A stretch of 64,000 bases of DNA. Source: Schmidtea nova (taxonomy: Eukaryota). Below are positions 11,101-40,700 of the stretch, piece by piece; the stretch's first letter is position 1; the number at the start of each line of letters is the position of its first letter. The DNA is taken from contig CM097883.1 in the NCBI GenBank assembly GCA_044892505.1, positions 348,130,001-348,194,000 of the forward strand, in the 5' to 3' direction. The translations under genes and the position numbers were made by a program. The notes under the pieces are model-generated. The model searched no databases. It was not told the origin of the DNA and was given only the letters and a program-made list of their open reading frames with translations.

Positions 11101-14100
11101 TTGATGTATTTGGCTATTTTGACGTTCCGGCTTGATTTTGTGTTTATGTAGTTAAAAATGTTTATTTAATACATGTCATTCTTGTTGTAAATGTATGTGT
11201 TGTATCGTCACTCAGTCCTGATTCAGTGTTGTCTTCATATATTGGCATAGTAATTTAGTTTTTTTTGTTGAAAACAGACTGCAACTGAACCATCCTTTTC
11301 TCAACACTCTTTGAAGTATACAAAGACCAGCTCAAATCTAAGAAACAGTGGTTCTAATCATGGCATTTCTAAACTCCTTTGGCCATATTCGAGGAAATCC
11401 GATCATTCCGTTGGAGATTGTGAAATGAATAAATCATCCCAATCTCTTCTCTGTTATAATTATGAAGATGTCCGTAACAGTAGAGAGAAACGATTCTCTT
11501 CCAGTGTTAATATTAACTGTCTCGCTACTTCAATAAACAGTTTTTCAGAATGTCTGACCATAAATGATAAGCTATCAACGATTGACTGTCCAAGTTTCCG
11601 ATCCGAGGTCAGCCAGTCCACAAATTTTATGAATTTTGTATCTAATTCACATATCAAATCGACCGAAGGTGCCGGTGATTCGTGCATTTTGATCAGCTCA
11701 AGATCTGATTTGTCAATGAAGAAAATGAAGACCCATTCGTCTGGATATCGCTCCTATATATCATCATCTAATTGTTCTACATATCGGTCGTGATTTTATA
11801 TTGTTCTTTTTTTATTTTACTTTCTTTTTTTTGATTTTGAATTTATCATGATCATGGTAGTGACTGTCTGTGATTTATTCAGATTTATTAGATTTTATTA
11901 ATATTACAATATTTTTATTGTACAAGATCTTTATATATATTGCTAATATAACGATAAATATTATTATTTTATAAATTATATTGGCCTTGTTGAATTCTAT
12001 ATTATATATCTTAATAAATTCACCGTTTGTTTTTTGTGACATTTTTTCACGTAATCTCAATATAGATTTTAGTAATTATTTTCATCAGATTTTGGCTGTG
12101 GCGCAGTCTTTCGAAAATGTCAAATTTTCGCCAAGAGAACAATATTTTTTACATAAATGATTTCTCAAAATATCCAGTGAATTTTGACACTGAACATCCG
12201 TTTTATGGCTTACAAACCATTATTTTCACTATTTTGCGGATTGCAAGTTTTTCCTAGGTATTCTGAATGTGGTTGATAATTAGTTTTATTTTTGTTCTTG
12301 ATATGCACAATTTCCGATTTGAATCTGCTACGAGGAAACAATTTGTACGTCACACTCACATGACATTTTTATGGTTTGATAGGAATTTATAAAAATTAAC
12401 TGTTTGCTCATTATTAAATTTGATAGGTATATATAGATTCGGATGTATTTAATTTCTATTTTTGTGAGTTGTCGCAAGATTTTGACTGCATGCCATTACT
12501 ACGTGTGTGAGTGTGTGTACACATCGGGTAGTGTAGGCAATTTTCTGTTTATATTGGATAGAATTTAGAAACGGTATATGCTTAATGATGTCTTATTTAT
12601 TTTACTTTACTTTTAGAATATTCTTTAATCATAAATGTCTATTTTCGTCTTTGTGCGCAATTCTTTAAATGCCATAATTCAAGATATTCCTGCAATTTAT
12701 TAGTTTTAATTAAGACTACAGAAATTTGTTAAACATGAATCTCGCCCCAGTCTCATTGAAATAAAATTAGCCCTAGATCATACAAATAGGTGATTTTATA
12801 TTTATAATCTTAGGAAAATGAATTTATTTTACTAATTTTGAGGGTATGGTTAACCAAACTATATTTTTCAAAAGAAATTTTTAAAATGAGTTCATGATTC
12901 ATTTATGAAAAAGCGATATTAAAAGGTTTAGTGGTATCATAGAGAGCATCAAAATTAAATCCAAAAAATTTATAATAATTATCTGTAAAAATCTTCACTG
13001 ATTAAACAATATCAAATATGAAAATAAAATTAATTTCATTATTTTCTTAATGTTGTCAGATTTGACAAATCGTTGTCTGCTAAGAGGCACTAGAAATTTT
13101 CAATTAATTTCTTTGATCTTCTTTGAGAACAACAGGATGAATCTCATTAAAAATAACTTTGAAATTCAAAATTATTAAACTTAATAATATTTTACAATTA
13201 ATTTTATTTTATTATTTACTAGCTTTATTACCCAGCTTTCAGTGGGATAGATTTAAACTCATTCTTTATTATTAATATCAATAATTATTATAGTGGTAAG
13301 ACAATAGATCAAAGTTTCTTTAAACAAGTACACAATATTTCGGCACAGCCTTTATCAAGTGTGTATAATATTGTGTACTTGTTTAAAGAAATTTGGATCT
13401 ATAATCATCCATTATGGGAATTATTAATATTAAAAAAGATCAAAGGTGAAACAAAAAGATAATTATCATTCTTTATTCATTATAATTAATTTTACATGCC
13501 ACGCTTACTTTATACTAAATCACAAACATGTATCTTTTTACTGGAATACGGCAGTTTATATACCGTGATTAATAAATAGAACCTCTGTGTTCTATAGACA
13601 GATTTTAAAGGTGTACTGTATGGCTTCTCCCTTGGTAGGATTGAAGTAGCAAACGCAGACTCAGAAAATCAAATATTTGTGTCAATATGGCGTTATTTTG
13701 GCGCTAATATTAGGTCATTTAGACTTTTAGCGTTTTTGGTACTACATAATGTTGAAAATTGACAATATCACCGTGCACCTTACCCCGTGTGGCACTCACA
13801 AGATATTGTCAATCAATTAATGGACTAATAATAATGTTTAAAAGTTAAAGATTGAAAAACTAATGTAAAAAGTTAAGAATTCAATGAAAATAATAATAAC
13901 TCTTTTAACAACCAAAAAGCATAGTTGAAAATTAAAAATAACACAGTTGACCTAGAAGTGGCAGACAGAATGGCATATATTTCTGATGAATTTTGAAATC
14001 ACGCTAACACAGTAAGATGAAGTGCTGAATTAATGCCTAATTATTTCTGATTTCACTTTATTTTGGCTTTTAGAAAAATCATTGAAATCTTTGCTTTTAG

Positions 14101-17100: not shown

Positions 17101-20100
17101 TAAAATTAACATAATAAAATAAAAGTTAAACACTATTAAATGCAAAGGTCACAATAATATATGAAAAATCCTAAAATGCATTGCCAAAGAGTTTCACAAC
17201 TACTCATCAATACGCTTAATTTTCTGGCAAATTTCTATTTTGAATTCATTTTCATTTCATCCGTCAATATTAGAAATTCACTTCATACATGAATGTGCTG
17301 TAAGCGGACAATTTGCACATTTACACGTGCGTAGCAATTTTTGTGGGCTGATAGAAGTCGTGTTGATTGGTATGTATAGATCCGGATGCATTTACTAATC
17401 ATTTTGTGAGTTTTCCCGTGACTTTGACTGTACACCCTCGTTCCTCAACATGTGGTCCGCGGACCACCAGAGGTCCGCGGGGTATTTGAGAAATTTTATT
17501 AATTAAGATACAATTTTTATGTAAAATTCTTAATAGAACTACATTTCTCTCCTTTTTTAATGCACAAAATTCCTTCCTTGAAATAGAATAATAAATTATA
17601 GAAGAGAAATATACTTACTTATCAATACTTATCATGTTTTACCAGATATTTTAAAATTAGTTTGTTTTAAGTATGTGATGGTCATACTGCTGGACACGAA
17701 AGGGTTTCTTCGTGCAAATCAAAGTTTGTATATGTTATTTGCTTATTCTAAAATGTATTTTTTATTTTTGACTAGTGCGCTCTGGACCGCGTAAATAATT
17801 TTGTTGGATATCCCTGTTTTAGTTCATAGTGTTGCTCCAAAGATTTAAAAGTTTTGATTCTGTTATTTGTGCTTTAACTTAGAAAGTAGACCGCATTTTT
17901 ACTTGCCTTGTTTTGGTACGTATGTTTCCTTAATGTTTTAAACTTTATTATAAACTATAAGACCCTCGAATTGATAAAGAATGGATTCGCGACCTATTTC
18001 GAAACATAGTATGTCTGTGAAAGAAGATCAATTATTAGAAATTAGAAATAACGGTGGGCTTAAGGCTGCATTCAAGACATCATTATTACCAATGTTTTGG
18101 ATAAAAATATGGCAGAATATCCCGAGTTCTCAACCACAGCTCTTAAATCTTCGTTGCCTTTTCCATCACTTATCTATGCGAGGCAGTATTTTCTGTGATG
18201 GCTGCAACCAAAACAAAACGCTTCGGGTATCCTTGTCGAAAATTATCCCAAGATGGGCCGGTCTAGTTGCAAATAAGCAATCGCAAGGTTCCCATTGATA
18301 TTTTGTGATATGAGAGTTTGCGTGTTTTAACAAAATTTTACAATAAAATAAATTATTAAAAGTACTAATCATTTTTTTAAAAAACCAAAAATATTATAAA
18401 ATTCCTAAAAGCGTAAATATTATACAACTATTATCAGAAAATTTAGGTTTCCGACGCCAACTACATTTTTATAAAAATCGACAGTAGTTGTCCCCGGCGA
18501 CAAATTTTTTCATCCAAAAGGTCTGTGGCTACAAAACGCTGTGGATCACCGCTGTACACCTCTAATGAATTCACGTAAATGCATCGAACAGGGTGCACAT
18601 TTTTTCGCTTATAGCAGATTGAATTTTGTTTGTTTGTTTTCAAATAATTTCTTTATAAAATTATACGAGTATATTACTAAGTTTTAGTAAGTAAATAAAT
18701 AATTGAAATATTTATATATAAAATATTTTTGTTAAGCTGTTCATTGCTTTTGATAAGTATACGCGTCATAATAAAGTGTGAATTTTGCTCGTTTGTTGTA
18801 TATACTCGTCGTGTTATTTTCCTTGTTTTTAATAGATGCATTTGCTCTGCATCTGACGTGCACACTCATCATTGTTTGATTTTATTTAAACACTTAGAAA
18901 TAAATTTTTATAACTGGATTTCATAATTAGTAGGTTTTTTCTACTGTTTTTTATTTTTCTCTCAATGAGTTTGAACAAGGTAAAACTGCTGGGAAAATTA
19001 CTCGGAACATTCAATATATTAATAGAGCTAATGTGATGAGACGTATATAGTTTTTATGTGGATATCTTTGGGCCCATGTTGAACTATATTCAAATTAGCA
19101 GAAGCCTTTGATTGGATTTCATAGACTTGCCGATAAAAATGCATCAAAGATAATTAGTTTGTTCTTTACTTCTTTCTCTTCTCAGAGGCGAAAATTTTTA
19201 GACTCAATTTGAACAAGTATATAATGCATATAAAGTTATATAATAAATAATTTGAGGCTTTTTCATAAATTGTAAATAATGCAAATATATTTCATATCAA
19301 TGCCATTGAAACAGATTCAAGGAAATTAAATATATCATTTTATTTATTTAAAAATTATTTTATTTTATATTAATATTAAAAATATTTTTTATAAATTATT
19401 TTTATAAATTTCATTTTTTTAAATATTATTAACATCTATTTTTTCACCTTTGATTTCATTTTTCTATTACAGAAATTTTTTTTTCTACTAGAATAAATTT
19501 TTTTATATTACGCGATTTTTCGGCACAACATTTTATAAATATGTTAAAATATTTTTCTTATAATGACTTGAAATTACTATTATTATATTTTTAAAATTTA
19601 TTTTATGAATTTTTTATTTAAAATTTAAATTTATATGTTAACTTTATTTCGAATTTTTTTTATTTTTAAATTTAATTATTTTTATCAATAATTTTCATAA
19701 TTGTATAAGACTATAGATCAAAAATTTTTTTTTGGTTTTTTGGTTGTTAAGTACACGATATTTCTGCACAGCCTTTATTACACCCTTTATACACTTGATA
19801 AAGGCTGTGCCGAAATATCAACAACTAAAAATCTATAATCATATAAAATTTGAAAATTATTGATATAAATAAAAAAATATCAAAGTTGAAACCAAAAGAT
19901 AATTATTATAAAATTTCTGTACCACAAATATTATGTTTAATGTTCCTATATCGATACTGAATATCTGTTTTTGTAGAACGTCGAGCTAGCATTGAATAGG
20001 ATCTGGGCAAAATTTGAATATTTTCGTGAAGTGGCACAATCGCTATTCTCGCTTCTAAGCGAGCTGGATAGGAAGGTTCTAGAGGAAGATATCAGGTTAA

Positions 20101-23100
20101 TAGATTTCAATAGAATTTTTTGTCATAGAAGTGCTATTTAGAAAATGGGAACAGAATATCAATGACCTAAAAGAATCCCTTCATACAAGAAATTCTTCCT
20201 TGATTCATTCAATGACGAATTATTCGAATCTATTGTGTGAGATTGATAGCAATTTGTCGGCATTGGAACATGTGAGAATGAGGTTGCGTAGTTACGTGTT
20301 GCTACCGCTAGCTCGGGAGTTGGTCGAAGAAAAACAAATTGAATTCCAGGTTATTTTATTTTTATCAGTAGTAAAAAATTCCCAATTTCCCAATTGTTAG
20401 CAAATCGCGTCTGACATTGCTGAGCAGGAACAACGAAATGAAATTATAAAAATTTCTTCGGAGTGTTGTATTGAAAATCTCGCAAAGCCGGAAATAGCCC
20501 AGCTTCAGTGTGCCTTGGATCGGCTGTTGAATGTATTCTCGGATGTCAAATCAGAAGTGGAACTTACGCGTGTCCATATCGATAAAATATTCACCCTTCG
20601 AATGAATGTCTATGAAATCCTCTCCAAGATCGACACCAATGGCATTGAGATTACGAAATTATGCGCATGTTTTCACCATCCGACCAATGATGAATCAGCT
20701 CTTATTTTGAAATTTGAAACGTTGCAGGTACTTCATTTATTTAAAGATTTTTGTTTATTTTTGTAAAAATTTTTATTAATCTAGAATTTGAAAGGCCTGA
20801 TTGAGCAGCAGCAGAACAATATCATGGACCTCATCGAATATTGGCATGATATAAGCATCAGTACCGTTAATGATGAGAGGAACTTGTTAGAAAACAAAAT
20901 TAAAGGTTATTTTATTTATTTTTATTTTATTGTAAAATTTTCTGTTTATTGTTAAAGGATTCATAATATTGAATTGGTCAAATTAAAATATATTGTCACT
21001 AAATTATTTGCCATATTTAAAATCAACTGTTAATAAAATCAAATTATATAATTACCAGTGTAAATCCGAAAATTTTGTGGTCAATTCTGAAAGAAATTTA
21101 AAATTTTTATTTTTGTTTTTATCGCTTTATTTTGAAGGGGGATTTTAAGTGGAAAATTTAAAAGATAAAAAATTGTATGTTTATTTGAACTTTTAATGGC
21201 GTCAGATGAGACGTAAAAATGAATGGACAAGAAGACAGTGATGTCAATATTGAAATGACAATTGAAAAGGCAAATGAAAACCAAAATAAAGATGATGTTT
21301 TAAATGAAAAAACGAGTGAAGAAATACTGAAAATTGAGAAGAAGTATAATGATATCAGACTGCTTTATTGGACAAATAATAGACCTCATTTTGGGCTTTT
21401 ATGATTCATCTACAATTCTCTGGGTATAAAGTAGTTTTCAAGTTTCCTTAAATCAATATGTCAACAGTACTGCTTTAACTAAACAATTCAATGTCAATAA
21501 AGAATGTGAGGCGTCAGAATCGGCAGAAATCGAAGAGTTTCAAAGCAAAGAAAGTCGCAGTAATAAAAATATGACTGTTATATTTTTTGTGAATATTGTG
21601 AAAAAAATTGCGTTTTGTTATTTTGTATTGTTTAATTTTTAAGATTTTTCTATACTAGGCCTACACAACTTAAGAAGCGCCAAGGGCTAATAATTTCAAG
21701 GAAAATAGTTGAGAGCCGAACGGGTAGTTAATATCATAATTATCTTTTGGTTTCACCTTTGATCTCTTTTTATTTATATCAATAATTTTCATAATCATAT
21801 GCCTATAAATCCAAATATTTTTGGTTTTTAAGTACACAAAAAACTTTTGATCTATAGTCATACCATTATGGAAATTATTGATTTAGGGTAGTTTGGAAAA
21901 AGTATAATATAAACCGGATGAGACCAACATATATTCATCATTGACATTGAAGATAGAATAGTTGATTGAAAAGTTCCTTGACTTTTTAATTACTAATCTT
22001 TGACAGCATAATCTGTTGATTTGTATTGATTGTGCTGGAATTCGGCCTTGTTTGGACATTAGTTGAAATGCTTGTAGAACTTAGATATGTTTAACTGTTG
22101 AACTTTCACTGTTTCTTGTCCCAGTCGTTGACGATATAACAAAAGAACTTTCTACGCTACTCAAAATTGATGATTTCTCACTCGTTTTGTCTGGTAATAT
22201 CGAAGAAAATTCTGGTTGGTTACACGACTTGATTGATGTGCCTGTTAAGTGCGTTGATGGCGTCTCACTTGAAGAACTAGTGCTTCTTATGGAGCTCGAA
22301 ATCTGTGTACTTGATGTCGTCGGTGATTCTGAACTTGTTACAATTATTTTCTCACTAGGTGAAATGCTCATTGAAACATTTTGATTTGAGAGCACTTCAT
22401 TGGATTTCTTGTTGGCCATGATGATTTTTTGAAAGTTAGTGTTATTTTCGATTATTTAAAACAAAAGAAAAAAAATTATTTAATATAATATTACATTAAT
22501 TATTTAATTATTAAATTAATGTCATTATTAAATTGAAAAGCCTGAGGCACTAAGGTAGTTAATAGAAAAGACTTTATATGATTTAAGTACAAGAAATAAA
22601 ATGCATTTTAATAATTTAAATGAAACTCGGTTTTAAGAGACTGCAATTCTTTCATAGATTTATTTAATTAAAATTTTATAAAAAGCGCCAAAATACTCAA
22701 TTATTAAAACACCAGTTAATTTAAATATCCAACTTAATATTTTTAATAGCGGCTTTTAAACATATTATATTTGTGTTTTTTACATTATTTCGTATTTAAT
22801 ATATTCGTTCGTCCGTCTAATAAATATTATTTATTGATTTAAAAATTTATTAAATCAGTTAATTCATTTTAAATATTTACTTCCATTTCTTTATGTGACA
22901 CAATGTGTGAACAGCCCAATAGTTATTCTAAAAAAATTACTTTTCCATAAACTTGATCATCCGAGATGATCTCCATTGTATAATTTTTTTTTCAAATGTC
23001 CAATTTCTTTCTAAACATCTTCAATGAAATTATTAAAGGGGCTTGGGTTTCGATCAGCAACTGGCATACAAAATCGATTGAACTGTACCTCTAGGAACGT

Positions 23101-25689
23101 CAAAAATAAATTCAAAAAATGCGACCATCATTTGATGGACTGCTAATATTTTTTATTTAACTACAAGATAAATTTTTATTTTTTTCAAAAAAAAACCCTC
23201 GTTCAACTTTTTGAAAAATTAAAATATGCCGCTGACTTATTTTCGTAAGAAGACGGAGGCAATCATTGAGGGATAATCATTGAATTTCTATTCTGACTAG
23301 GATAATGGTTTTATTATTAATTATTGTTTATTTAGAGTGGAATACGTGTAATCAAGACTTGTCAAAACAAACATGTCGAGAAATTAAAGCAACGGGAAAA
23401 ATGATAAAATATTACCAAACATGTTCCAATGATTTCAAAATTGTAAATGCTTTCACAGACGATCTAGAAGATCATTTTAAACAAAATCATCAATTCGATA
23501 TTAATTCATTTTATTTTCTAAAGGTTTGTAGAGTTTTATTTTTATTTTAGTTAATAATTACGCTTTTAATAGTTAATTTAACATGTGTAAAATAAATTTT
23601 AATATTCTTAAATAAATTTAAATTCATCTAAAATAAAAATTTCTGTACAATTTTATCCTTGATGTGAAGTTTCATAATTTTCAAATTTAACATAAATACA
23701 AGTTTCATTAAAATATTTTTTATATATTCAATTTTCATGTTTTATCTATCAATATCTTGTTGTATATTTAACACNNNNNNNNNNNNNNNNNNNNNNNNNN
23801 NNNNNNNNNNNNNNNNNNNNNNNNNNNNNNNNNNNNNNNNNNNNNNNNNNNNNNNNNNNNNNNNNNNNNNNNNNNNNNNNNNNNNNNNNNNNNNNNNNNN
23901 NNNNNNNNNNNNNNNNNNNNNNNNNNNNNNNNNNNNNNNNNNNNATGACTATAGATCAAATTTTTTTTATAAACAATAACACAATATTTCGGCACAGCCT
24001 TTATCAAGTGTGTATTTGAAATACACACTTGATAAAGGCTGTGCCGAAATATTGTGTTATTGTTTATAAAAAAAATTTGATCTATAGTCATTATGAGAAT
24101 TATTGATAATAATAATAAAAAAAGATCAAAGGNNNNNNNNNNNNNNNNNNNNNNNNNNNNNNNNNNNNNNNNNNNNNNNNNNNNNNNNNNNNNNNNNNNN
24201 NNNNNNNNNNNNNNNNNNNNNNNNNNNNNNNNNNNNNNNNNNNNNNNNNNNNNNNNNNNNNNNNNNNAATTGAGTTTTAGTGGTTTGTGTATGTGAATGT
24301 TTACGAACGGGAAGAAGAGTTGTAGGACCCGAGAGAGTCAGCCCGGTTGTTGTGGGGACACTCGGGGTGTATGCTGTGTATTGGTAGATTATAAGTGACA
24401 AAATAAAATAATAAACAATGTGATAAATTAATTATTAACTATAACCAGATATTGTCAAATATACAATTTTACAGAAGTTACTTTATAGAGTTTCGGAGAG
24501 AGAGTCTTTTTAATATATTTGCTTTTGATTTATTTGATTAAAATTTTCTTAAAATTTTTGAATTTACAAAATATTTCAGAATAGGAAATTCAATGTCTTG
24601 GCTCTCTCTTTTCAGTCTTCGTTTACAAAATATTTCAAAATAGGAAATTCAATGTCTTGGCTTTCTCTTTCCAGACTTCGTTTACAAAATATTTCAGAAT
24701 AGGAAATTCAATGTCTTGGCTTTCTCTTTTCAGATTTCGTTTACAAAATATTTCAGAATAGGAAATTCAATGTCTTGGCTTTCTCTTTTCAGACTTCGTT
24801 TACAAAATATTTCAGAATAGGAAATTCAATGTCTTGGCTTTCTCTTTTCAGACTTCGTTTACAAAATATTTCAGAATAGGAAATTCAATGTCTTGGCTTT
24901 CTCTGTTCAGTCTTCGTTTACAAAATATTCCAGAATCGGAAATTCAATGTCTTGGCTTTCTCTTTTCAGACTTCGTTTACAAAATATTTCAGAATAGGAA
25001 ATTCAATGTCTTGGCTTTCTCTGTTCAGTCTTCGTTTACAAAATATTCCAGAATCGGAAATTCAATGTCTTGGCTTTCTCTTTTCAGACTTCGTTTACAA
25101 AATATTTCAGAATAGGAAATTCAATGTCTTGGCTTTCTCTTTTCAGATTTCGTTTACAAAATATTTCAGAATCGGAAATTCAATGTCTTGGCTTTCTCTT
25201 TTCAGACTTCGTTTACAAAATATTTCAGAATAGGAAATTCAATGTCTTGGCTTTCTCTTTTCAGACTTCGTTTACAAAATATTTCAGAATAGGAAATTCA
25301 ATGTCTTGGCTTTCTCTGTTCAGTCTTCGTTTACAAAATATTCCAGAATCGGAAATTCAATGTCTTGGCTTTCTCTTTTCAGACTTCGTTTACAAAATAT
25401 TTCAGACTTCTGATGTATTATTTAATTATTACATAATTTTTAAAATCAATTTTTTATTAATTTTTCAATTTGGCTTACTATAGCTTTTGCTATAGCAAGC
25501 CAAATTTGAATTTTAAATTTAATTATAATAAGGTCGAGAATAATAATAATAATAAAAATAAATATTTACATTCACGATGAAAATAAAGGGGGGTCCCAGG
25601 TGACCGCAAGGGCACCGTCCATAACAATGACGGCGTGTACAACTGCATAGGTAAATAATCATATAAAAATAACCATTAAATTAGACATC

Positions 25690-25764
<75 letters not shown>

Positions 25765-28700
25765 ATTAAATATAAACACAAAAATATATTAATATTAAAA
25801 ATAAAAAATTAAATAACTAAATAATATAAATTATGAGAGGGTGTGATTTTCAAATTTTATATTCGTTATTATTTTTATTATGATAATAATTATTAATTAA
25901 TTATTACACTTGACATGTGTAAAAATTAATGGAAATTATTTGATTTATGAAGCAAATGTAGAAAAATTGTTAAGATTTGTTACTGTATGAACAAAATATT
26001 TTTATATTTTTCTACATTTACTTATTTTTATTTTCTTTATCTTCATTTCAAACTGTAAATCAATATTTTCTCAACCTTTTTTCTTTTGGTGGAACACCAA
26101 GTGTCAAATCAAGTTATCTATAAAAAGACTTCTTGAAATGATTTATTATATATTATCGCAATGTTATTAAAATGTTATGTGTATACATAGTTCAATAATT
26201 CTCAACCTTTTTACTTTGCAATTTATTGGATAAACTAGTAGGATAGTACACGTCAGATAAAGAACCCCAGTATGACCTCTTATTATAACAGGTAATTATT
26301 AAGCAATTAACCTCGCCATATTTGGCCTGTTATTAATAACTGTCCTTTAACTCATGAAGTCATAAATGACATTTGACTCCCGTGTAACCTTAACTCCAGT
26401 TTTCCTTCAGTTACTATGTGGTAACATGCGTACTCACCTAAGCACACACTTAGTAACCTATACACATGATTACTCATTTACACACCAACTATAATCAACA
26501 CGCTTACTATCCCACTCTTACTGCATTTCACATGTACTTCCTGCTGTCATGATGGAATCCAGGTGAAAAAGCTAGTAATGGAGACCTATCAAGGACCTCT
26601 AGCCTGAAAGGAAGATAGATGGGAATTGATCAACGGTGTTAATGAAAAAATATTACCGATTATAATAATGTTAACAAATTCTTCGTATTTAAGCCTTAGT
26701 AATTATTTATTTATCACATTATCTAAAGTATATTGAAATATTATTATGCATGATTTTTACTATCAATTTGTCATAAATGTGTATTTGGGCATTGTTATTA
26801 CTTGGCGAGTCTTACACAACTTGATGGTGCCTATTAAATATGTTGAGACCCCTATATTTTTCTACGACTATTATAATCTTATTCTATATTGGAATTGAAC
26901 CTAAACAATTGAATAACGGAGAAATTATTTCAGAAAAAACAAAATCATCTCAGTGAAATATTTACCACATTAAATCGGATTTTTGAAGCTTTCGTGGAAA
27001 ATGAACATTCGATTCCCGTAGAGGTCTACCGGACAATGTTTGATCATGCTATTCAGTTGAGATCCCGTTTAAAAAAGTGATTTATTTGGCACAGTTTCAT
27101 TTGATAAATATTTGTTTTTCTAGGCTGGAAGAAAAGATAGCTAGCGAAATTGAAACAAACGAACAATTACATTTGCCAGTAGATTTAATAAATTGGAATA
27201 GGAAGCTTGCAAATTTGACTGACCGTTTCAATTTCTTGAATCAGCCGTTTCTTGATGAAAATAATGACATTATACTTGCTGATATTAAGGTACTTTTAAT
27301 GGTATATTGTTGTTTGCTATGTTGGCTTAGGATCTTTTGAATGACATTACCAGTTTCCATAAAGATTTGAAAGCATTTGAAGCCCCTGACAAAGAATCGT
27401 TAACGGTAGCTCTTATCGAAGTAAGCAGGGAATTAGCCGCCTTAGAAAGTCGGACCAACGAAATATTAAATAAGACAGCCAAAACACTGGAGCATCAAAA
27501 AACATACAATTTAGTCAAGGGAAATATTGAAGGCAAAATTGCTGAGATCAAAAATCATTTGGATATTATTGAAATTCCCGGTGTATCGTTGGCAGCTAGA
27601 AATCACAGATACGAAGTACTTTATGTTTATTATTTTAATTATAATGCAGTAAATCCCTGACAAGTGTCACACCATTATCTATGTTGATGGATAAATAACG
27701 CCTTCAGAAGATGAATTATAAATTTATTTATTAAAATTCGATAGCTGTCACTCTTTATTAAATATCATTTAAAAAAAGGTTTATCATTTGTGATANNNNN
27801 NNNNNNNNNNNNNNNNNNNNNNNNNNNNNNNNNNNNNNNNNNNNNNNNNNNNNNNNNNNNNNNNNNNNNNNNNNNNNNNNNNNNNNNNNNNNNNNNNNNN
27901 NNNNNNNNNNNNNNNNNNNNNNNNNNNNNNNNNNNNNNNNNNNNNNNNNNNNNNNNNNNNNNNNNNNNNNNNNNTAATACTTATAATAATAATAATAATA
28001 ATAATAATAATTATAGAATAACGCCAACTCAGTAAATTCAACATAAACGCGATATATTTCGATTGTATAACAATCTTCTTCAGGCGAGGCAATCAGGACA
28101 ATCAATAATAAAATAGAAAATATGCTAAAATTTGAACAAATTAATCAATAAAAATCATCTTAATACCATATCAAAATTTTAATTAAAAAATTTAAAAATT
28201 TATTTTATTTTATTACACAAAAATCTTTTAAAATTTAATTAAAAACAAACATTATACATAGAACAACATACGTATTATTTTAAAAATAAAATTTAATTTA
28301 ATAAAATTTTAACACAACATAAAATTTACAAATTTTAAAATTTAAAAAAAATTAAAATTTTTACAAACAAACAAACAAACATAATAATACCACAAACATA
28401 ATCCGCAACATTCAACCTTCAGTTACTTAAACACATTCAAAATATCAGTGGAACGGGCAACTTGATCATTTATTTTTGGATTAAAATATCTAATCAGCAA
28501 TGCCTCACAAGTTACTCGTTCCCAATAATTACTTAAACCCTTTGAAATAATTTTAAAATCAGAGATACCTATTTTTTTACTGACACATTTCCTAAAATGA
28601 TCAGTAAAAAAATAGGTATCTCTGATTTTAAAATTATTTCAAAGGGTTTAAGTAATTATTGGGAACGAGTAACTTGTGAGGCATTGCTGATTAGATATTT

Positions 28701-31700
28701 TAATCCAAAAATAAATGATCAAGTTGCCCGTTCCACTGATATTTTGAATGTGTTTAAGTAACTGAAGGTTGAATGTTGCGGATTATGTTTGTGGTATTAT
28801 TATGTTTGTTTGTTTGTTTGTAAAAATTTTAATTTTTTTTTAAATTTTAAAATTTGTAAATTTTATGTTGTGTTAAAATTTTATTAAATTAAATTTTATT
28901 TTTAAAATAATACGTATGTTGTTCTATGTATAATGTTTGTTTTTAATTAAATTTTAAAAGATTTTTGTGTAATAAAATAAAATAAATTTTTAAATTTTTA
29001 AATTAAAATTTTGATATGGTATTAAGATGATTTTTATTGATTAATTTGTTTAAATTTTAGCATATTTTCTATTTTATTATTGATTGTCCTGATTGCCTCG
29101 CCTGAAGAAGATTGTTATACAATCGAAATATATCGCGTTTATGTTGAATTTACTGAGTTGGCGTTTTTCTATAATTAAATCATTGCCACGTTTTNNNNNN
29201 NNNNNNNNNNNNNNNNNNNNNNNNNNNNNNNNNNNNNNNNNNNNNNNNNNNNNNNNNNNNNNNNNNNNNNNNNNNNNNNNNNNNNNNNNNNNNNNNNNNN
29301 NNNNNNNNNNNNNNNNNNNNNNNNNNNNNNACAGTCACTAAGTAATTTGAATGAAGATTTTGATCAACTATGTTCACTTAGTCAAAGATTGACAGAAACT
29401 TGCGATGAAAATTATAAAGAAAAGATTGTTGGAGAAGTATTATTTTTTTTGTTTGTAAGGTAAATATTGTTCGATGTTTAGTTGTTGATGATACGGTCGA
29501 GCATAAACGATTTGACACAATATATAGCAAGGGCCAGTTTGCAGACAAAAGCGTCTATTAAAGAAAGGAAAAACCTATTGGAAATGATTGTCAAAGCATT
29601 AGAAAAGCTAAAGTTGATGGCCGATTCGGTTTCAACTCCTGAGAAAGTTGGACTGGAAGTAAAAGATGTCGATCAAAGAATACAATTTTATCAAGTATAT
29701 CATTTTTATTTTATTTTATTTATTTAAAAAGCAATAAAAATAAATGAGTGAAAAATTTTTTTTATTTACAATTATTTGTTATTTCAATTTTAGTTGTTTT
29801 CATATTTTTAAGATAATAGATCAAATTTTTTCATTGGAACACAAATTTCATATCTTGTCTCAAAAATGAAAATATCTAAAATTGTAAATAAATTTAAAGT
29901 TTACCAAAATTAAAGCTGTTTAATTTTTGAACACCAAAGAAAAAAATGTTAGTTGTCCTTTTACACTAGAACTACCAAGTCATTCACATTGGCTGGCTAA
30001 AGATTTATACGGATTCATTCTATTTAAAGTACGTTACAAAGAATAAATGAAGATTTAATTATCAATACTTTCGTCTAACTCAGTGTTATTCAAGCTTTTC
30101 TTCTTAGTGACACACTTGTGAAAATAAGACTTTCACAACATTTTACAAGTTTCTTTTCCATCTAGGATCATTAATTCATGTACAAAAAAAACTTTTTGCT
30201 TTTATGCCATTATATCAAAGAATTAAACTGTTTTTGCACTAATTATTTTTTGGTTTCATCTTTGATCTATTTTTTTAATTCAATAATTTTCAGATTCATT
30301 TTTGTAAGGTTATAAATCAAAATATTTTTTGGTTGATAGGTGCACGATATTTTGGCACTGCCTTTATCAAATATGAATCACGCGTGATAAAAGCTATGTT
30401 AAAATATCGTATGCCTAACAACCGAAAATATTTTTTTTCAATATATTTTAAAATTTTTTGGCTCTTTAAATAGTAACTATCATTAAGATCTCTTGTTTCA
30501 CCTTTGATTTTTTTGCTAAATATTTCAGAAATTTTCATTTTTTTTCAAAAGACTTGATCAAATTATTTTTAAAATGTACACGAATTTTCTACACAGCGTT
30601 TATCAAGTGTAATTTCACATAATTTTTAATACACATATGATAAAGATAATACGGAAAATTCGTTTACGTTTTAGAAAAACTTTAACATTTGATATTCAGT
30701 CTTAAATAATGAAAATATTATGGTGCGTATAAGACTTACTATATTAAAATTTAAGACTTTTCTAATAGATTTTCATATAAAAATAATTTCTTGAATCGGT
30801 TTTTTGAGAAAANNNNNNNNNNNNNNNNNNNNNNNNNNNNNNNNNNNNNNNNNNNNNNNNNNNNNNNNNNNNNNNNNNNNNNNNNNNNNNNNNNNNNNNN
30901 NNNNNNNNNNNNNNNNNNNNNNNNNNNNNNNNNNNNNNNNNTTCGTGATATTAAGGAATTCTCTTAATATTTTAAAAGAAACCATAGATATCTGACAAAT
31001 ATAATATCTGACAACTATATATGTCCCGGTATATGATTCGTCTACTAATTTATCATTTCAAATTTTGAAATCTGTTTGTGAGTTCAAACTTATAAACGTT
31101 TAAACCAACCATGTTCTTTTTGTGTAACTTCATGATGCTTCCTGGGAGCCATTTGTTGGGTTTAAATTTTTAATAAATGTTTATAATGTTATTACAAACA
31201 TATTTTTAATAAATTAAATGTCAATATTTTCGTAGCATACTAGCATTTGAATTCAATACTTTAAAAAAATACATTATTAACAAAAAAAGTTATATTAACA
31301 AGCAAAATTGTAAAGATTCTACACAAATTAATATCTATTATATATAAATGGAACCAGCCAGTCCCTTAGGCTGCGGAATAGTTTAATCTAATAGTTTGAT
31401 GGATAAACATTTACATAAAACCGTGTGTGAACCTCAATGGTGCATTTTTACTTTGAAATCACGAATTTAGCCGTGTCACGGANNNNNNNNNNNNNNNNNN
31501 NNNNNNNNNNNNNNNNNNNNNNNNNNNNNNNNNNNNNNNNNNNNNNNNNNNNNNNNNNNNNNNNNNNNNNNNNNNNNNNNNNNNNNNNNNNNNNNNNNNN
31601 NNNNNNNNNNNNNNNNNNNNNNNNNNNNNNNNNNNNNNNNNNNNATTCATTATTTCACACTGAAATGTCGGGACAGCAGTTTAGACGGCATTGGTCTAAA

Positions 31701-34700
31701 TTTGTAGGACAGAATCCTTAATTTTGATAATTTTGGGTAAAGAATTTCCCCGGTTATTCTTGTGTTAATTTATGATTTGAGAATATCTTTCTATGTTTAG
31801 AAACTGTCGCATCTCGAAAAATGATCTTTATCTTTTCAGTTGCTGAAGGCTCAATTCGTGGATCTGATTGAGCAATCTTCCGAGTGGGTTGAATCTCTCA
31901 ATGATGATTACAAATCAACTGAGGAAATCATTGAACTTGATATCAAGGAAAAAATAGAAAATTATTCTGAATTCAAAGAAATCTTTCAAGAATATCATCC
32001 GAAAAAGATAGCGGCTTTATATGGGGCGCGAGATACGAGAATAAGAATGAGTAGATGCAAGAAAGAAATTACAGATTGGATTGAATCGGCAACGATTTTA
32101 CGGAGCAGGACAGAAGTCGACAGGAGTCTGGGCACTCTAAAGAATTTGGACATTGCGGATAATTTAATGAATCTCGATTTGGGGCATTTAGACAGAGAAA
32201 GTAGTCAATTGAACATGACGTTTGGGAACGGATCATTTTGTCCTTGTGATGAGGCTTTTGAAAAATATAGTTCTCTCTGTGAGAATTTGATTCCGTATGT
32301 TGCGGAAAACGATTCCGCTTCATTGAAAAGTGATTTAGCAAATTTATCTGGTACTATTGGTGAATTGAAGATGTTTAACTACAAATGTTTGGAGAAAATT
32401 GCATTTTTACAAGATCTGTTGAACACATTCAAGGTAAGGACATTTAATTGATATGCATAAATATAACCAAGAGTTAGGCTGATTGTGAGCATTTGGACGC
32501 CCAAATGGACTCAATTGAAATATGTGTCATGAATATCAGTAAGAGCTTGAACGCAGTAGATTCTGAAGGTGAATTGGCACATCAAAACTTTGCTGCCCTC
32601 ACTATGACATCGGATTATATCAGAGATAACCTGACTCCGCGATTGGACAGAATGTTCGAGTCCTGTCAAAAGATGTATACTATTTGTAATCCCGCCAGCG
32701 TCCAAGTCATCATAGATGATTATCAGCATCGAAAGATACGATTGAAAGATATAGAGTCCAATTGTTGTCAGTTAACAGCTTATATTGATGTTAGTCTTAT
32801 GTTGATTATCTTTTTCCTTAATTATCTTATTTTAATTCCATACTTATTGATGTAAATAATTGGTTCTTCTATCAAGCAGTTTGGAAACAGTTTTTACGCT
32901 ATTTCTTAATTCGATTTAATATAAACAGAAAACTGTACACGGCCAGTAGCATAAACATATACTTAGTAGTGACATGTAGTCATAAACTGAAATTAAATAC
33001 ATGCAGATATATCCACACTCATCAAACTTACAAATGAGCACACTTGATTATTTTCGACTATTTCTTATCGAACCACACAAAATTTCATGCGAATGTAACT
33101 CACAAATTGTCTGCATATAGCATACTCAATTTGGAAATGATGTAAAAGCCGTCACTATATTCAAGACACCCTTTCTAAGTTATTTTTAAGACTCCTTTAC
33201 CAACAATATACGTTGATTAAGAATTGACGGTTTTATGTGATTTTTGTAGTATATTTTAAAAGACAATAATTTTAACGAAATAAATAATTTATTGTTAATT
33301 AAATATTTTTTTAAAATAATTTTTTTTCATATTTGTTTAATATGACTGACTAAACTATTTCTCATTGTAGAGAAAGTAAAAACGTTACTTTATTTTCGTA
33401 TTAAGAGTCAGCAAATTATGTTTTTTTTTAATTAATTTCCTTGTTTTTTATTTATTTTACAAATTTAAAATAATTCTAAATAAAAATGAAAATTTTATGT
33501 TTTACTAATAAAAATAATTTTTTGAGTAATCGGAGCCCCATCTTCCAGCGTTACAGATATTTATTACATTTTTAATTCAACTATTATTTATAATAATAAT
33601 ATATTTTTGTAAAAATTTATATATTACTTATATTAATCNNNNNNNNNNNNNNNNNNNNNNNNNNNNNNNNNNNNNNNNNNNNNNNNNNNNNNNNNNNNNN
33701 NNNNNNNNNNNNNNNNNNNNNNNNNNNNNNNNNNNNNNNNNNNNNNNNNNNNNNNNNNNNNNNNNNNNNNNNNNNNNNNNNNNNNNNNNNNNNNNNNNNN
33801 NNNNNNNNNNNNNNNNNNNNNNNNNNNNNNNNNNNNNNNNNNNATATAAATATTTTTTAACCAATAGAATCAATTGAAATCCAAAACCACTGAAGACCTT
33901 CTGAACAATCGAGTAAGGATTGAATTGGCTGATGCGTCAAAAGCGATTTGGTCGAATGAATTTATAGAAAAAGAATCGTCTAAACATATTTTGAACAACA
34001 TTGAGGATATAAAAGTAATTTTTGTATTAAATTTATAATTAAATTTAAATAGTGATTAATAATTACGTAGATAAGAGAAAAAGATTTTATTGTAAGCCAT
34101 TCTAATTGTTTTTGTTTACTAGTTTTGTTTATATATATATATATATATAATATGAAATGAAACGCCCACCTTATGAATCAGATCCATCATTCCGTGGCAT
34201 GTACTCCTTCAAAATCACATTTACAATGGTTATCCCAATTCTAGTGTTTTCCATGTTCTATTTATAGTGTATAATTTCTTTATCTTTTTTTTTGTTTTAT
34301 AACAAATTTATCTTTTAAATGATCTTTCCGCATCACTTCCAATTTTAATCAAAATATCTTATGGGTATGACAATATGTTTATTCAAGATGTTTATGATTG
34401 TTTATGACAAGATGTAGATCCCTGAATGATAATGCGCTTCATTAGCAGATTTATAATTACTAAATTGTATTAGCAGTTAATAGTTGACTATCTTGATAAT
34501 GATATTATTTAGAGCCACCAAAGAATTCTCACAGATTTGGAAGAGACAATAACTCTTAATTGCAATCTTGAAGATTATCTCCAGACTGGACCTCAGCAGT
34601 TAATATTTGAAGAAATTGAAAAGTTTATTTAATATTTGTTTATTTCTGTATTTTTTGTACATTAAAAATGCTTGATAAATGCAATTTAGCTAAATGAAAC

Positions 34701-37700
34701 TTTCAGTGATTTTTAATTTTCATTGTGAAATGTAATGCTGAAAGCGATATTTTATATTAAAAATTTAATTAACAAATAAAATGAAAAATAATAAAATCCC
34801 AATGAATGAATGAGTCAAATCTTTGTTGAGCGGCGCAAAAAATCGACAGAAAAAATTTTTGTTAGAAAAAAAATTAAATTTGTATTTTTTTATTTAAATA
34901 AAACTACCTTATTATCTTGATTTTAGCGAAAACATAGTGGCAACAGATTTGCACGTAGCGAAATTAAAGATTTTGTGCGAATTTTAATCAAATATATCTG
35001 ACTACACTGTTCAATTATGAAATTTCTTTGAATGATGAAATTTAAAACTTTTAAATTGTTTCATTTTCTAGGGAAAATAATATCGTATTAAAACAAAAGT
35101 GTATTTTTGAAGCAAGTTATGTTTACTGAAAAAAATATTTATTGGCAAACTTTTAATTTTGAAATCTGTTTTTGTAAGATCAAATTCATTTTTGTATCTG
35201 AAATTGGAAAAAATTATTTTTAATTAAAAATGAATAATAATAATGAGTGTAAAAGTTGTATAAATAAATAAGAAAATTAAGAACACTGGAAACTAGATTA
35301 AATATTTTGCGGCGCTTTGAGGATGGATAAAGGGCTGTTGATATTGCTAGAGCACTCGGACTGGAACAGTTTTTTTATTTAGGATTGAAACAAATCTTTC
35401 GTATTTTAGTACAACTCCATACAAAAGTTTATTTTGAATTGTGACTTTTCGTTTGCGACGAATTTTTTGGAAACCAATTGTCCTCGAAAGTTGTTTATGC
35501 AATATTGAGAATAAATAAAATTTAGTTGAATTTATTTTTGAATTATTTGTATTTTCATCGATGTTATAAATACTAGGAGTTCTGAAAATAGAAGCAACTC
35601 TAATACTCGATAAACACATCTTGCAAACACGTATTGTAATAAGCTATATTTACAAATTTTGTAACATTTCTATGGCATCAACTTATTAGAAAGTCATAAT
35701 TATTGGTAAAATTTAAATTTAAAATCTTTATTTTCGTTACTTATTTTTCAAGTGCGTTTATTTTCATTTTTAAAACAATAAATCAAAATACAAGTAGATT
35801 GGTTTCTCAAAAATGCCGTGTAAATCGAAATCGTGTAAATTGAAACCGTACAATTAGTAATTAAATATATATTTTATTGAAAAAATATGTGTTGAATCTA
35901 AAGTAAAAGAATAAATATTAAAAATTTCTTTTTAATAAAGTTAATATATTTTGATATTATATGCGGAATTTTTACGCATTTCATCAATCGTGTTAAACCG
36001 AAACCGTGCAAATCGAGGGCTAAGTGCATTTAAATGCTAAGTATTTTTTATTCAAGAATCAATGTAAAATATAATTATCTATCGGTAGAATAAACGAATA
36101 GTGTGGTTTTAATTACATTCTAAATAATATATTTTTCTCCGCAGTAAATTATTTTAAAAATTGTAAAAACTCTTGAATAAAAATACTTAGCATTTAGTAA
36201 AAATAACACTTAGGAATTAAATCATTCCCTTAAAAAATTCTTTGTTTCCTAAACAAGAACTTTAGGCGCTGTTTTTTTTCAAGTATTTATTTTCAATAAA
36301 AAAACTTGAAATGGGCAGTGCTGAATATTTGTGTTGTTTGAGAAAAAAGAATTTTTTTTTGTCTTAAAAATGAAAATATATATAATTATTGATGTTAAAT
36401 AAATTTCAAAATCATATTTTCTTTCTAGTGGGTGTTTGAATAATTTACATTCATGTTAAAAATATTATTTTACCTCCTAAATAGAATTTATAAATGGTTC
36501 ATAATTAAATGCAAACTAAATAATTCGATTTTGCACACTATAAAATTAATAATTGCACACTATAAAAATGATTTTTGCACACTATAAAAAGATTTTCGCA
36601 CACTATATTTTGCACACTATAAAAATAATTTTTGCACACTAAAAATACTTTTTGCACACTAAAATTAATTTTTGCACGCTATATTAAAACTTCTGTTAAA
36701 TAGATTTTGCTCACTATAAAATTAATTTTTGTAAATTATATTTTGAAATCAATGATATTTTTTTTAAACTACTGTAATCTTTGTTTTGTAAAATATGCGA
36801 TAAATTATTACAGTGCTACATCAACATGAAATGATTTGAAATTCAAAAAACATATAATACATGCAATATTTACGTAATTAATTGATTGAAGGTTTTTGAA
36901 TAATTTCTGAAAAAACGATGTAGAGAGCAATACACTTGGAAACTTGTTTCGAATTTAGCCGTTTAAACGCATTCTTTTTTAATTTAAAATGAATTTTGCA
37001 TTAAATTTGATTTCTTCGACGTTTAGCACATTTTCATTAAATGTATAAAAATTCGAAAAATCCAACGAAATTTATTTCACAAAGTTGCATTTCACAAGCT
37101 TTCTTTGGATAAGGTTTCATTATCGATATTTTTTAATTTTGTTTTGATTTTTTTATATATTTTTAGGGTGAAAAACAGTATGAATTTGTGCTTGTTGAAG
37201 TGTGAAGATGAGGTGGAATTCAGAAATCAAATTAGCCAATTTATAAAACAAATTGCACCCACTTTATCCGACCTAAATGAATCCTTCAATCATCCAATCA
37301 AAGCCAAGCAGCTGTTGGAAATAGCTGGCACTTTTCGCAATATTTCCCAAAGAGTTCATCAATTTCAAAACGACGTAAAACAGCATTATCAATATGGCAA
37401 CCATCGAAATGCTGCAATTCTTTTCGATGTCATTCAGACGTGTCAGGGTGTGAAGTCAAAAATTCAAAGTGCTTTGGAAGGTACAGAAATGGACACTGTT
37501 GAGTCGGATATTCTTTTGAACATTATTGGAATGATTAGTGAGTTCGAGGAGGATGAAATTATGGCTACTCAATTGAAGGACGAAGATCACATATCCGATA
37601 TGTCTATTCAGTCGAGCCTATCCGATACGGATCATCAGGCCGTTGTCATTGATTGGCTGGAGTCGGCTAATCAAATATTGAAAGATTCCTATTTTGAACG

Positions 37701-40700
37701 TGTCGATGATTTGGTTTTGAAAATTGAAGAGTCGAATGAGCTATTGAAATGGGATATCAATAAGAACATTGAAAAAATTCTCCAAGGTTCTGAAAGTTCA
37801 GAAAAATCTATAGAATTCATTGATGAATATCGTAATACACGTGAAAATTTACATCGGAGTCTCAATGACCTTATGTTGAAATCGACAAAGTATCACGAAT
37901 GTGTTATGGCTGCACATAAATGTTTGCAGTGGTTGGATGCCAGTGACATTGATAGGACAGATGTTGAGGGGAAAGCAAAGAAGCTGGAAAGGTGCATCAT
38001 GGAAAAGGAAAATATTGAACAGTTATTATCAAACTTGCAAGACGGCGGCTATTTCAGAGCAAAACCAGTAATTACAGAAAACGTTCTATCAAATTTAAAT
38101 GCTGAAATAGCACAATTATGTGATCAATCCGTAACAGTGAGTATCTTTTTATTTTAGCTATCAAATATGTATATATAATAACACTGTCTGTCCGTCCACA
38201 CATCCCAACATTATTTGACTATACCTAATTTTAGTTAATAATAAGTTTAGTTAATAATTTATGATTTTTTTTAAAAAAAAAGATTTATGTTTTTATATTT
38301 TTTAAAAAATGAAAAATTTTATGTGTAAAACTTTATTAAAAAATTGAATTTTGATACAATTTGAGGATGATTATTATTAATTAATTTGTTTGAATATTTA
38401 GTATTTTCTATTTATTATTGATTCCTGATGCTTGCCTGAAGATGACTGTTATTCGGTCGAAATTAATCGCATTTATGTACAATATAATTAGTTAGCGTTT
38501 ATATATTATTAAATCATAGCCATGTTTTTTTGATTAATAATAATAATAGTAATAATTATTATTATTACAGGAAACCCTCGTTTAACGAGGTTTACTGGTT
38601 CCGCGTTATCTAAAACCGGATTAAATAATAAAAATTTACATATAATAAAAAAATTATAATAAGAAAAGAACGTAAAAATTTAATTATATTTTGAAAAAAA
38701 TTATCTAAATTTTAAAATCCGTGTTCTCAAAGTACCGCGTTATTTTTATTGTTGATTATGTTTTTTAATTTTTAATATTTAATTAATGCCACTATCAGGA
38801 ATCCGCAATTTATATTTTTGGTATTATTATGATTATTATTATTTTGATTATTATATGAATAATATAAATATTTTTATACCAATTACGAACTGTTTTAGTA
38901 ATAAATATTTATAATTTGTTAATATGGATTGAAAAATTTTGACCCATAACTATTTTATTTTTGATTCCAGTGTTAAAATATTGAGCGTAAGTTTGTGATT
39001 CATTGTATAATTGATTGAAAATTAAGAAAAAATTAAATTTTCCTATGACTTTTAATTTTAATCGACAGTATGAACATCAACTTTTCTCTTTTGGATGATT
39101 TATAATAGTGATTTTGATTTTACCTAATAACTTTTCATTTTAAAACTAGAACTTCCGGGGAAATTTTATTACTCAAAACCACTGATCGGTCAAATAGACA
39201 GATGATTTATATTGTCGCATATATAGTTTCATTTAAAAATTTATACGATATTGTTGGTAATTAAATCTTCATTTAATTTTTTAATTTACTATCTTTAAAT
39301 AGAATAAATCAACATAAATATTTAGACACTCAAAATGACTAACCTTGTAATTCTAGTATAAATGGGAAATCTGATTTTTTATTTCATTATTTTCTGAAAA
39401 TCGACTTTCTTATATCGAATGATGCATAATTTATTTTAAATGAATTTAATTTACTGATTTCAAGTTTTGTCTAATAGTCATGCTAACGGTAACTAAATTT
39501 GGAAACCATATGGTTTATTGGATTTACACGAAATTATTATTTTCTAGCCCGCAATATTACTGTCTCGTCAGTCTATGTTAATGGGTATTATGTCATTCTT
39601 CATTTTAATGCCTTTTCTATGGAATTTATTTCTTAAAACATCCCCTATTTTATAGGATACTATGAATTCTTGTAAACTATAATTGCATGAACTTTTCGGA
39701 AAACTAATAAATGACGGAAATGCAAATATCATAACAATCCAAAATATAACACAAATATTTAATAAATAGGGTGACCTTGACATTTATTAAGTTTTCATTA
39801 ACGTGTTTTATTTTAAATTGATTAATTTTATTTTTTAAATATTTATAATTTCGTCTGAAAAAATCTTAAAAAACTAGTTGAAGTTGAAAAGTCAGGTTGA
39901 ATATTTGATAGGAATTACAAAATAAGATTAGCATAAGGAATAATGAGTGTAGTTGACGGATTCAGAATAGTCAATTTTTGATTCATTTCTCTCAGGGCTT
40001 TATTTATCCATTAAAATATCTATTCAATGTGACACTTATCGATAATTTACTGTATATTATTATTTTTTTATTAATATTAATTATTATTAATTGACTATTT
40101 TATTTAGAAAACAAAAACGTTTGATTATAATGAAAGCAGTTTTCCTAATTTAATAAAGAAACCTGTATCATTTGATATTAACGATGACACGTACGAAGAA
40201 TATTTACAAAGAAATTATGATAATCACGGAGATTCCAGTTCGAAAGATTTTAGTGAAATTCCTTTTAAGAAACTGAAAACAAATGAATTAAGTGTCAAGA
40301 CTTCAGAATCAATGTTAATAGAAGACACGTCAATTAGATTCAATCTAGACTCTTCGGCCAAAGTTACAGATTCAAGATACAATTCTAATGAATGCAACAG
40401 TGAAAATAATGCCCCGTTGTCAATTGGGATAGAGGGTGGTGATGAATCAAGGCTGTCCTCCCTTGGTAACTATTCGAGCACTGAGACTGAGTCCATTTGT
40501 ATTGAATCGAATGATTCTGACAATGAAGATGAGGATAATGAAAACAAGATCACTACAAGCAATGTCAATGATCTGTACTTCACTCCGTTGCAGACAAATG
40601 AGGACTTTGTCCCTGACAATAAAAAAGACAATTGTGATATGTCAAACAAAAAACTATTAAATGCAAACAACAATGCCGTAGAAAGCAAACATGAAAATCC

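Follow-up and report, generated by a model that had tools for sequence, protein, structure and literature searches.

Minimal type-I hammerhead ribozymes (min-HHRs) are carried by metazoan Penelope-like elements (PLEs), and Cervera and De la Pena (2014, PMC4209133) report approximately 1,300 hammerhead motifs with a U3-A8 core in Schistosoma mansoni. Min-HHRs have an unpaired base between positions 9 and 10.1 and a palindromic 15.2-16.2, show low cleavage and only as dimers, and also occur as opposite-strand pairs 100-700 bp apart (PMC4209133). The insertion signature of PLEs, as outlined in PMC8557442 and PMC3846280, comprises inverted 5'-adjacent copies, palindromic head-to-head junctions, a tail of 30-40 bp at one end and target duplications of 8-10 bp. 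In PAc, the Poseidon element of Anolis carolinensis, reverse transcription starts at two internal sites that bound the tail, the target is AT-rich DNA cut on both strands, and uncleaved RNA serves as the main template (PMC11167929). PLE pseudo-LTRs are the reported source of retrozymes (bioRxiv 10.64898/2026.07.22.740005), which are defined by tandem units (same preprint; PMC6765202).

We analyzed a window of 64 kb from the genome of Schmidtea nova that holds many copies of a short palindrome with a hammerhead-like motif on its arms. In our judgment it is probable (about 0.85) that these palindromes are ORF-less paired Penelope-like pseudo-LTRs (pLTRs), put into AT-rich DNA by the reverse transcriptase (RT) and GIY-YIG endonuclease of a PLE acting in trans. 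A close layout is that of Pen2, Pen2a and Pen3a in Adineta vaga (PMC3846280; scheme in PMC8557442), which likewise have head-to-head pLTRs, a palindromic junction and a one-end tail of 30-40 bp; insertions of EN+ PLEs in A. vaga also share the 8-12 bp duplication and the insertion into other PLE copies (PMC3846280). Unlike the A. vaga insertions as described there, the palindromes have no ORF or captured sequence between their arms, are very dense and keep a fixed short size. The non-autonomous Chlamys elements, e.g. MRC1 (PMC8557442), and the animal non-LTR retrozymes (bioRxiv 10.64898/2026.07.22.740005) are similarly short, non-coding, PLE-related and presumably PLE-mobilised, but both are described as head-to-tail, whereas the palindromes are head-to-head without tandem units.

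The focal palindrome

The focal locus (23945-24132) consists of two head-to-head arms that include a perfect 73-bp inverted repeat (23945-24017 against 24019-24091). A 33-nt motif faces outward on each arm, at 24025-24057 on the + strand and, as its mirror, at 23979-24011 on the - strand, in the orientation that the first-pass annotation had described for most copies. On the + strand the motif has a helix I of 4 bp, a U3-A8 core, one unpaired A, a helix II of 3 bp with a 3-nt loop, GAAA, a palindromic UA and U17, and the cut is predicted between 24053 and 24054. The two 5' ends meet in a palindromic centre of 13 nt (24012-24024). Outward from the + strand motif lies the arm body (24058-24111), which is common to long and short arms and in which an ATG at 24093 opens a candidate short reading frame. 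It is followed by the start of a one-sided 3' tail (24112-24132) that stops at an N gap. Since N gaps lie on both sides (23775-23944 and 24133-24267) and both outer ends fall inside them, the focal ends and any target duplication are unreadable, and the insertion anatomy was therefore drawn from the sister loci.

The identity of the focal arms (100%) and the gaps around them raise the question of an assembly artefact. Of the 13 N runs in the window, eight are no more than 30 nt away from a copy either of this family or of the PLE designated family B below, a count in which the gaps partly set the boundaries; such clustering would be expected if repeats of this kind break short-read assembly. 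However, the six other intact pairs are only 67-83% identical between their arms and four loci carry target duplications, so that at most the focal locus would be affected, and we regard an artefact as extremely unlikely.

The hammerhead motif

A search for the focal motif with up to 3 mismatches gave 7 matches in the window and none in 100 shuffles. We also wrote a descriptor, after the motif had been seen, that allowed a C3-G8, U3-A8 or C3-A8 core and an optional unpaired base and required helices I and II and a palindromic helix III. It matched 8 times in the window, against a mean of 0.1 in 40 shuffles; four matches were U3-A8 arms and one a C3-A8 arm of the palindrome family, and three were canonical motifs of family B. 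The nine core bases are intact in 13 of 19 arms, most of which have U3-A8. The arms also carry the unpaired base between 9 and 10.1, the G10.1-C11.1 pair, the palindromic 15.2-16.2, the short helix I and the opposite-strand pairing described for metazoan PLE min-HHRs, and the 8-nt core is identical to that of family 3 of the S. mansoni min-HHRs (PMC4209133). Differences from the min-HHRs published there are the helix II of only 3 bp, which is at the low end of that set, the spacing of 5-32 nt at a fixed centre instead of approximately 100-700 bp, and the lack of a linked ORF in our window. These likenesses support the assignment of the motif, by its sequence, to the minimal type-I hammerheads of the published U3-A8 kind, as had been proposed at first pass.

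Conservation was scored on 16 of the 19 aligned arms, after two 5'-truncated arms and one identical mirror had been dropped. The nine core positions were 96% conserved compared to 82% for the other 24 (base-stratified p 0.002), a difference that is inflated because the arms were chosen for their likeness to the motif. C3-A8 was present in 2 of the 16 arms and C3-G8 in none. The first-pass annotation had regarded a C at position 3 as an intermediate form; the C is present at 1503 and 61907, but its intermediate status was rejected. In the insertion that holds 1503 the other arm carries U3, C3-G8 is found nowhere among the arms, and the C3-A8 arms are therefore better read as point mutations. 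CpG decay as a source of the C/T variation gained no support from the window, where the observed/expected CpG ratio is 0.95.

Covariation in the motif helices is weak. Within this one window 79% of the cells pair, each pair of helix II shows one two-sided change and helix I none; 14 of 500 shuffles matched the covariation score and 178 of 500 the count of two-sided pairs. The change on both sides of stem II (GAC/GTC) that had been noticed at 9245 is present, but it is absent from the partner arm. The monomer folds into helices I and II (-5.9 kcal/mol, z -1.2), and helix III, as an AU duplex of 4-6 bp, adds almost no stability. We also considered a cis-dimer of the two arms of one locus and rejected it, because the two motifs are not on the same strand and a hairpin would form instead. 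The hammerhead motifs of the genomic copies are probably inert. An Rfam scan at E≤10 gave no hammerhead family and only hairpin miRNA models below the gathering score, a result that is uninformative since the same scan missed the canonical hammerheads of family B. A scan of the 24-nt motif against GTDB gave 0 matches.

The type-I motif with its palindromic helix III would also fit a non-LTR retrozyme, of which tandem hammerhead units self-cleave into circular RNAs that reinsert. This alternative from the first pass did not hold up: no locus in the window has head-to-tail units, and in the absence of tandem units the family is not classed as a retrozyme. In addition, paired motifs are on opposite strands, and the predicted read-through transcript would fold into a 72-bp hairpin (-111 kcal/mol) in which the motif is buried. 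We consider a retrozyme origin highly improbable and retain the reading as paired pLTRs.

Copies of the family in the window

A profile based on 13 arms picked by hand matched 26 times in the window at E≤0.015 and once more at 0.1, while the best match in the reversed window, used as a control, had an E of 0.96. Grouped by hand, the matches form 18 stretches that together occupy 2769 of the 60591 non-N bases (4.6%), so the earlier figure of about a dozen copies was an undercount. A typical locus has two head-to-head arms and measures approximately 250 bp in all. Beyond the motif, the shorter arm extends, by eye, for approximately 65-75 nt and the longer one for 90-105 nt, and not for the 130 bp or so suggested before.

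Locus A (1369-1626) is tailed on the left, has a 12-bp duplication (1369-1380 and 1615-1626) and lies inside an older PLE endonuclease gene. Locus B (2042-2399) has its tail on the right, partly in an N gap, and a 9-bp duplication (2042-2050 and 2391-2399). Locus C (9101-10201), with motifs at 9180-9212 (-) and 9245-9277 (+), is tailed on the right and has no clear duplication (7 bp); its right arm is apparently split by an element with terminal inverted repeats (TIRs) at approximately 9303-10097. In Locus D (13259-13477) the left arm is intact without a tail, the right arm begins in helix III and is tailed, and a 12-bp duplication is found at 13259-13270 and 13466-13477. Locus E (19680-19905) is tailed on the right and again has no clear duplication (6 bp). 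Three loci are centre-truncated: Locus F (21722-21893), with a left arm that begins at the predicted cut site and bears the tail, and an 8-bp duplication (21722-21729 and 21886-21893); Locus H (7020-7159), with a tailed left arm and a right arm that ends in an N gap; and Locus K (58698-58795), truncated near the predicted cut site and tailed on the right. Locus G (30240-30445) and Locus J (30480-30716) have the tail on the left arm, the right arm of the latter being decayed, and Locus O (36233-36410) is an old, decayed pair with a tail detected on neither arm. Other copies are a single decayed arm with a tail (19430-19544, -), a partial decayed arm (29785-29850, -), a decayed arm in which the motif is present (47586-47670, +), a partial arm with a tail and without the motif (61744-61815, +) and a single arm with a C3-A8 motif and no tail (61816-61911, -).

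The copies sit in AT-rich DNA among + strand exon-like frames of a large gene, for which no homologues were detected, and since they are flanked by frames of one gene they are probably intronic. An apparent host intron of 44 nt is present at 32434-32477. At 40108-47649 (+) an acidic open frame of 2513 codons, with internal 75-nt repeats, is probably one giant exon; it has no Pfam match, and the neighbouring exon-like frames are without detected homologues.

Several other repeats share the window. The TIR element at approximately 9303-10097 is bounded by terminal inverted repeats of 17 bp and contains an open frame rich in S/T (9509-10060), and no second copy of it was found in the window. A mariner-type transposon at 52827-54133 has inverted ends of 75 nt, is flanked by TA and contains a Mos1 HTH domain; mariner- and pogo-like fragments are at 57096-57428 and 61093-61431, and broken pieces of an LTR retrotransposon with an integrase core domain are at 54332-56086 (-). 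A repeat family of approximately 80 nt (76-83% identical) occurs at 8449-8525, 10210-10268, 27659-27724 and 39971-40047, and a small palindrome with arms of approximately 18 nt flanking an (AT)n run at 60811-60880. Tandem arrays at 24563-25406 (59 nt x 14.3) and 48060-48517 (45 nt x 10.2) had no match to the hammerhead descriptor.

Centre, tails and target duplications

The distance between the helix I starts was 5-32 nt in all seven pairs with both motifs, and the 13-nt palindrome at the focal centre fills that gap; across the family the centre is fixed just upstream of helix I. No shared sequence upstream of the centre was found in any arm. Arms of one locus were 67-100% identical (mean 78%), compared to 70% between loci.

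For the tail, three tail sequences were aligned to the outer part of 27 arms, with a cut-off of 29, the 99th percentile of random windows. Exactly one arm was tailed in 9 of the 10 two-ended loci (A-G, J and K), both arms in none, and neither arm in one (O). Scores were 30-60 on tailed arms and 12-28 on their partners; just part of the tail can be seen at Locus B (score 30), and on the focal right arm just its beginning. By eye, the tail measures 33-45 nt and the long ends are spread over approximately 8 nt.

Flanking direct repeats were determined at the six loci with anchored ends (A-F), leaving out G, J, K and O, and measured 12, 9, 7, 12, 6 and 8 bp, respectively. Mismatched flanks gave a mean repeat of 5.4 and a maximum of 8, and the true pairing ranked first among 720 permutations; repeats of at least 8 bp occurred in 176 of 5000 random window pairs. 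As mismatched flanks average 5.4 and go up to 8, the repeats of C and E were not counted as duplications, and the accepted target duplications (4 of the 6 loci) vary between 8, 9, 12 and 12 bp. The duplication of Locus A is independently confirmed because the insertion interrupts an older PLE gene that is readable on both flanks. There, the two flanks continue one PLE protein match, so that the insertion splits a decayed PLE endonuclease gene; the five codons ahead of the duplication match PLE protein P0010 at 5 of 5 positions, in a frame set by the other flank, and this is the only such 15-mer among 120,788.

Foldback and Mutator-type MITEs are also short palindromic non-coding repeats with a target duplication. 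A MITE of this kind, moved by a DNA transposase and looking like a hammerhead by coincidence or through a captured relic, would explain a palindromic, ORF-less unit of approximately 250 bp at high copy number. Duplications of 8-12 bp overlap the Mutator range, centre deletions are common in foldback elements, and the covariation of the motif is weak. Nevertheless, 9 of the 10 two-ended loci have unequal ends and none has two long ones, the long ends vary by approximately 8 nt, and the duplications have no fixed length. Moreover, conservation is highest in the motif, at the inner end, and the real TIR elements of the window have matching ends, unlike these palindromes. A MITE origin is improbable and largely refuted already. 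That the family is no MITE had been stated at first pass, and the one-sided tail, the variable duplications and the fixed palindromic centre bear this out in favor of paired pLTRs.

Among 12 truncated arms, the starts at F and K (21836 and about 58732) are no more than 2 nt from the predicted cut, and those at D and H 6-7 nt before it (about 13367, by eye, and 7121). These cut-site-near starts were noticed post hoc and are few, and deletion at the palindrome centre accounts for them equally well.

Penelope-like elements in the same window

At 27975-29194 the window contains a 5'-truncated true PLE, family B, in the form of a 1.2-kb head-to-head palindrome with 98.5% identical arms. The last 54 codons of its protein encode a GIY-YIG C-terminus at 28597-28758 (+), plus a mirror, and canonical C3-G8 hammerheads face outward at 29102 (+) and 28083 (-). 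Its arms begin at the same codon with a 17-nt spacer, and the right arm runs past the left; an ATG lies 6 nt after the cut site and the ends adjoin (AAT)n. In a HMMER search the best relatives of the 54-codon end were 57-65% identical and had GIY-YIG or RT domains, and two of the 15 matches (P0005 and P0006) were discarded as unrelated repeat proteins; among 8000 candidates scored, 1412 relatives of P0010 with RT were found at E≤1e-30. The same 54-aa end gave no match by word-based search and none in Pfam, and Atlas yielded no more than a weak lead to GIY-YIG (score 0.86, 15% of members). A relative of family B at 38297-38528 is 84% identical, and its hammerhead at 38436 has helices I, II and III changed with pairing kept (by eye).

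Two decayed PLE endonuclease fragments with stops and frameshifts were also present, both on the - strand. One (about 900-1641) ends in a dead hammerhead at approximately 939, which by eye is alike at 44 of 49 positions to a row published for Schmidtea mediterranea in the PMC4209133 supplement, a likeness that points to a planarian host; the other is at 51544-51651.

Since family B shows outward hammerheads, joined arms and unequal ends, a genuine PLE in this genome makes the same outward-facing, unequal-ended architecture as the palindromes. Together with the PLE-type tail and duplications, this agrees with the proposed relation to Penelope. Family B itself was rejected as the partner of the palindromes, as DNA similarity between the two was limited to AT-rich matches.

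No RT or GIY-YIG ORF and no PLE protein match adjoins any palindrome copy in the window. A tblastn search of the window with six PLE proteins gave matches only in other elements, and a motif regular expression run over 352 short frames gave no PLE ORF. Autonomous PLE status was therefore rejected for the palindromes, which have no ORF attached. An ATG approximately 40 nt beyond the motif has its frame kept in 7 of 11 tailed arms, as would be expected if the pLTR overlaps an ORF start. The tail peptide showed no likeness above shuffles to the N-termini of 47 long proteins (45 PLE-like, 2 unrelated); 104 and 68 of 200 shuffles scored as well. The approximately 40 nt from the cut site to the ATG (e.g. 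1550-1585, +) contain a GT, a CTAAC that resembles a branch point and a T-rich stretch with TAG at its end. PLEs can retain 5' UTR introns.

Full PLEs, consisting of an inverted pLTR and a pLTR-ORF-pLTR-tail unit, could have lost their ORF later by recombination between direct pLTRs, analogous to solo LTRs. The A. vaga layout with 8-10 bp duplications (PMC3846280) would leave an inverted arm and a tailed arm in this way. This would require a loss at all of the approximately 18 stretches, with no intermediate seen, and the other PLE families in the window retain their ORF ends. We hold such a history to be very unlikely; it shares its origin with the insertion of ORF-less paired pLTRs and differs only in the route.

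Proposed origin of the palindromes

If the palindromes are paired pLTRs inserted in trans, their anatomy may be accounted for as follows. By analogy with PAc (PMC11167929), the PLE enzyme would nick both strands 8-12 bp apart, and reverse transcription would start at either of two internal RNA positions separated by 33-45 nt, so that one end is long and tailed and the other short and tailless. Copying would then halt at a fixed 5' end of the RNA, approximately 6 nt upstream of helix I. The template would mostly be uncleaved RNA, because most arms retain the whole motif. A second arm could be made by fold-back or by second priming, resulting in a head-to-head pair with a short palindromic junction. 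The end product that is seen is a palindrome of approximately 250 bp with unequal ends and a variable target duplication. Two internal starts that define the tail, AT-rich targets and an uncleaved template would thus be shared with PAc, which, unlike the palindrome family, has a C3-G8 core, an ORF and a tandem layout (PMC11167929).

The motif would be inherited from a master RNA, in which it could act only as a dimer or with the help of a protein. The template may have been a short RNA that propagates itself or the 5' end of the transcript of an autonomous PLE; we judge the chances to be about even. More tentatively, and with doubt prevailing, the family may be a self-propagating ORF-less Penelope parasite that forms a fixed-size palindrome and mimics a MITE, with thousands of junctions that record the start of the RNA.

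Implications

The ribozyme variant itself is not new, and every single part of the family, including the U3-A8 cores and the opposite-strand pairs, has already been published (PMC4209133). No description of an abundant ORF-less palindrome family with a fixed centre was found in the open-access literature, to which our search extended.

Some apparent MITEs may be products of retroelements, and the present family could be mis-annotated as a MITE. Being short, abundant and readable in its duplications, with one fixed 5' end and two defined 3' ends, it provides a compact natural dataset on PLE arms and tails. In vitro, insertion of PAc did not require its hammerhead, and none of the RNA reads ended at the cut site (PMC11167929); the dataset bears on whether cleaved PLE RNA ever gets copied. 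If the family is such a self-propagating parasite, and if starts at the cut site are enriched genome-wide, they would record, as a footprint in the genome, that a PLE hammerhead cleaves in vivo.
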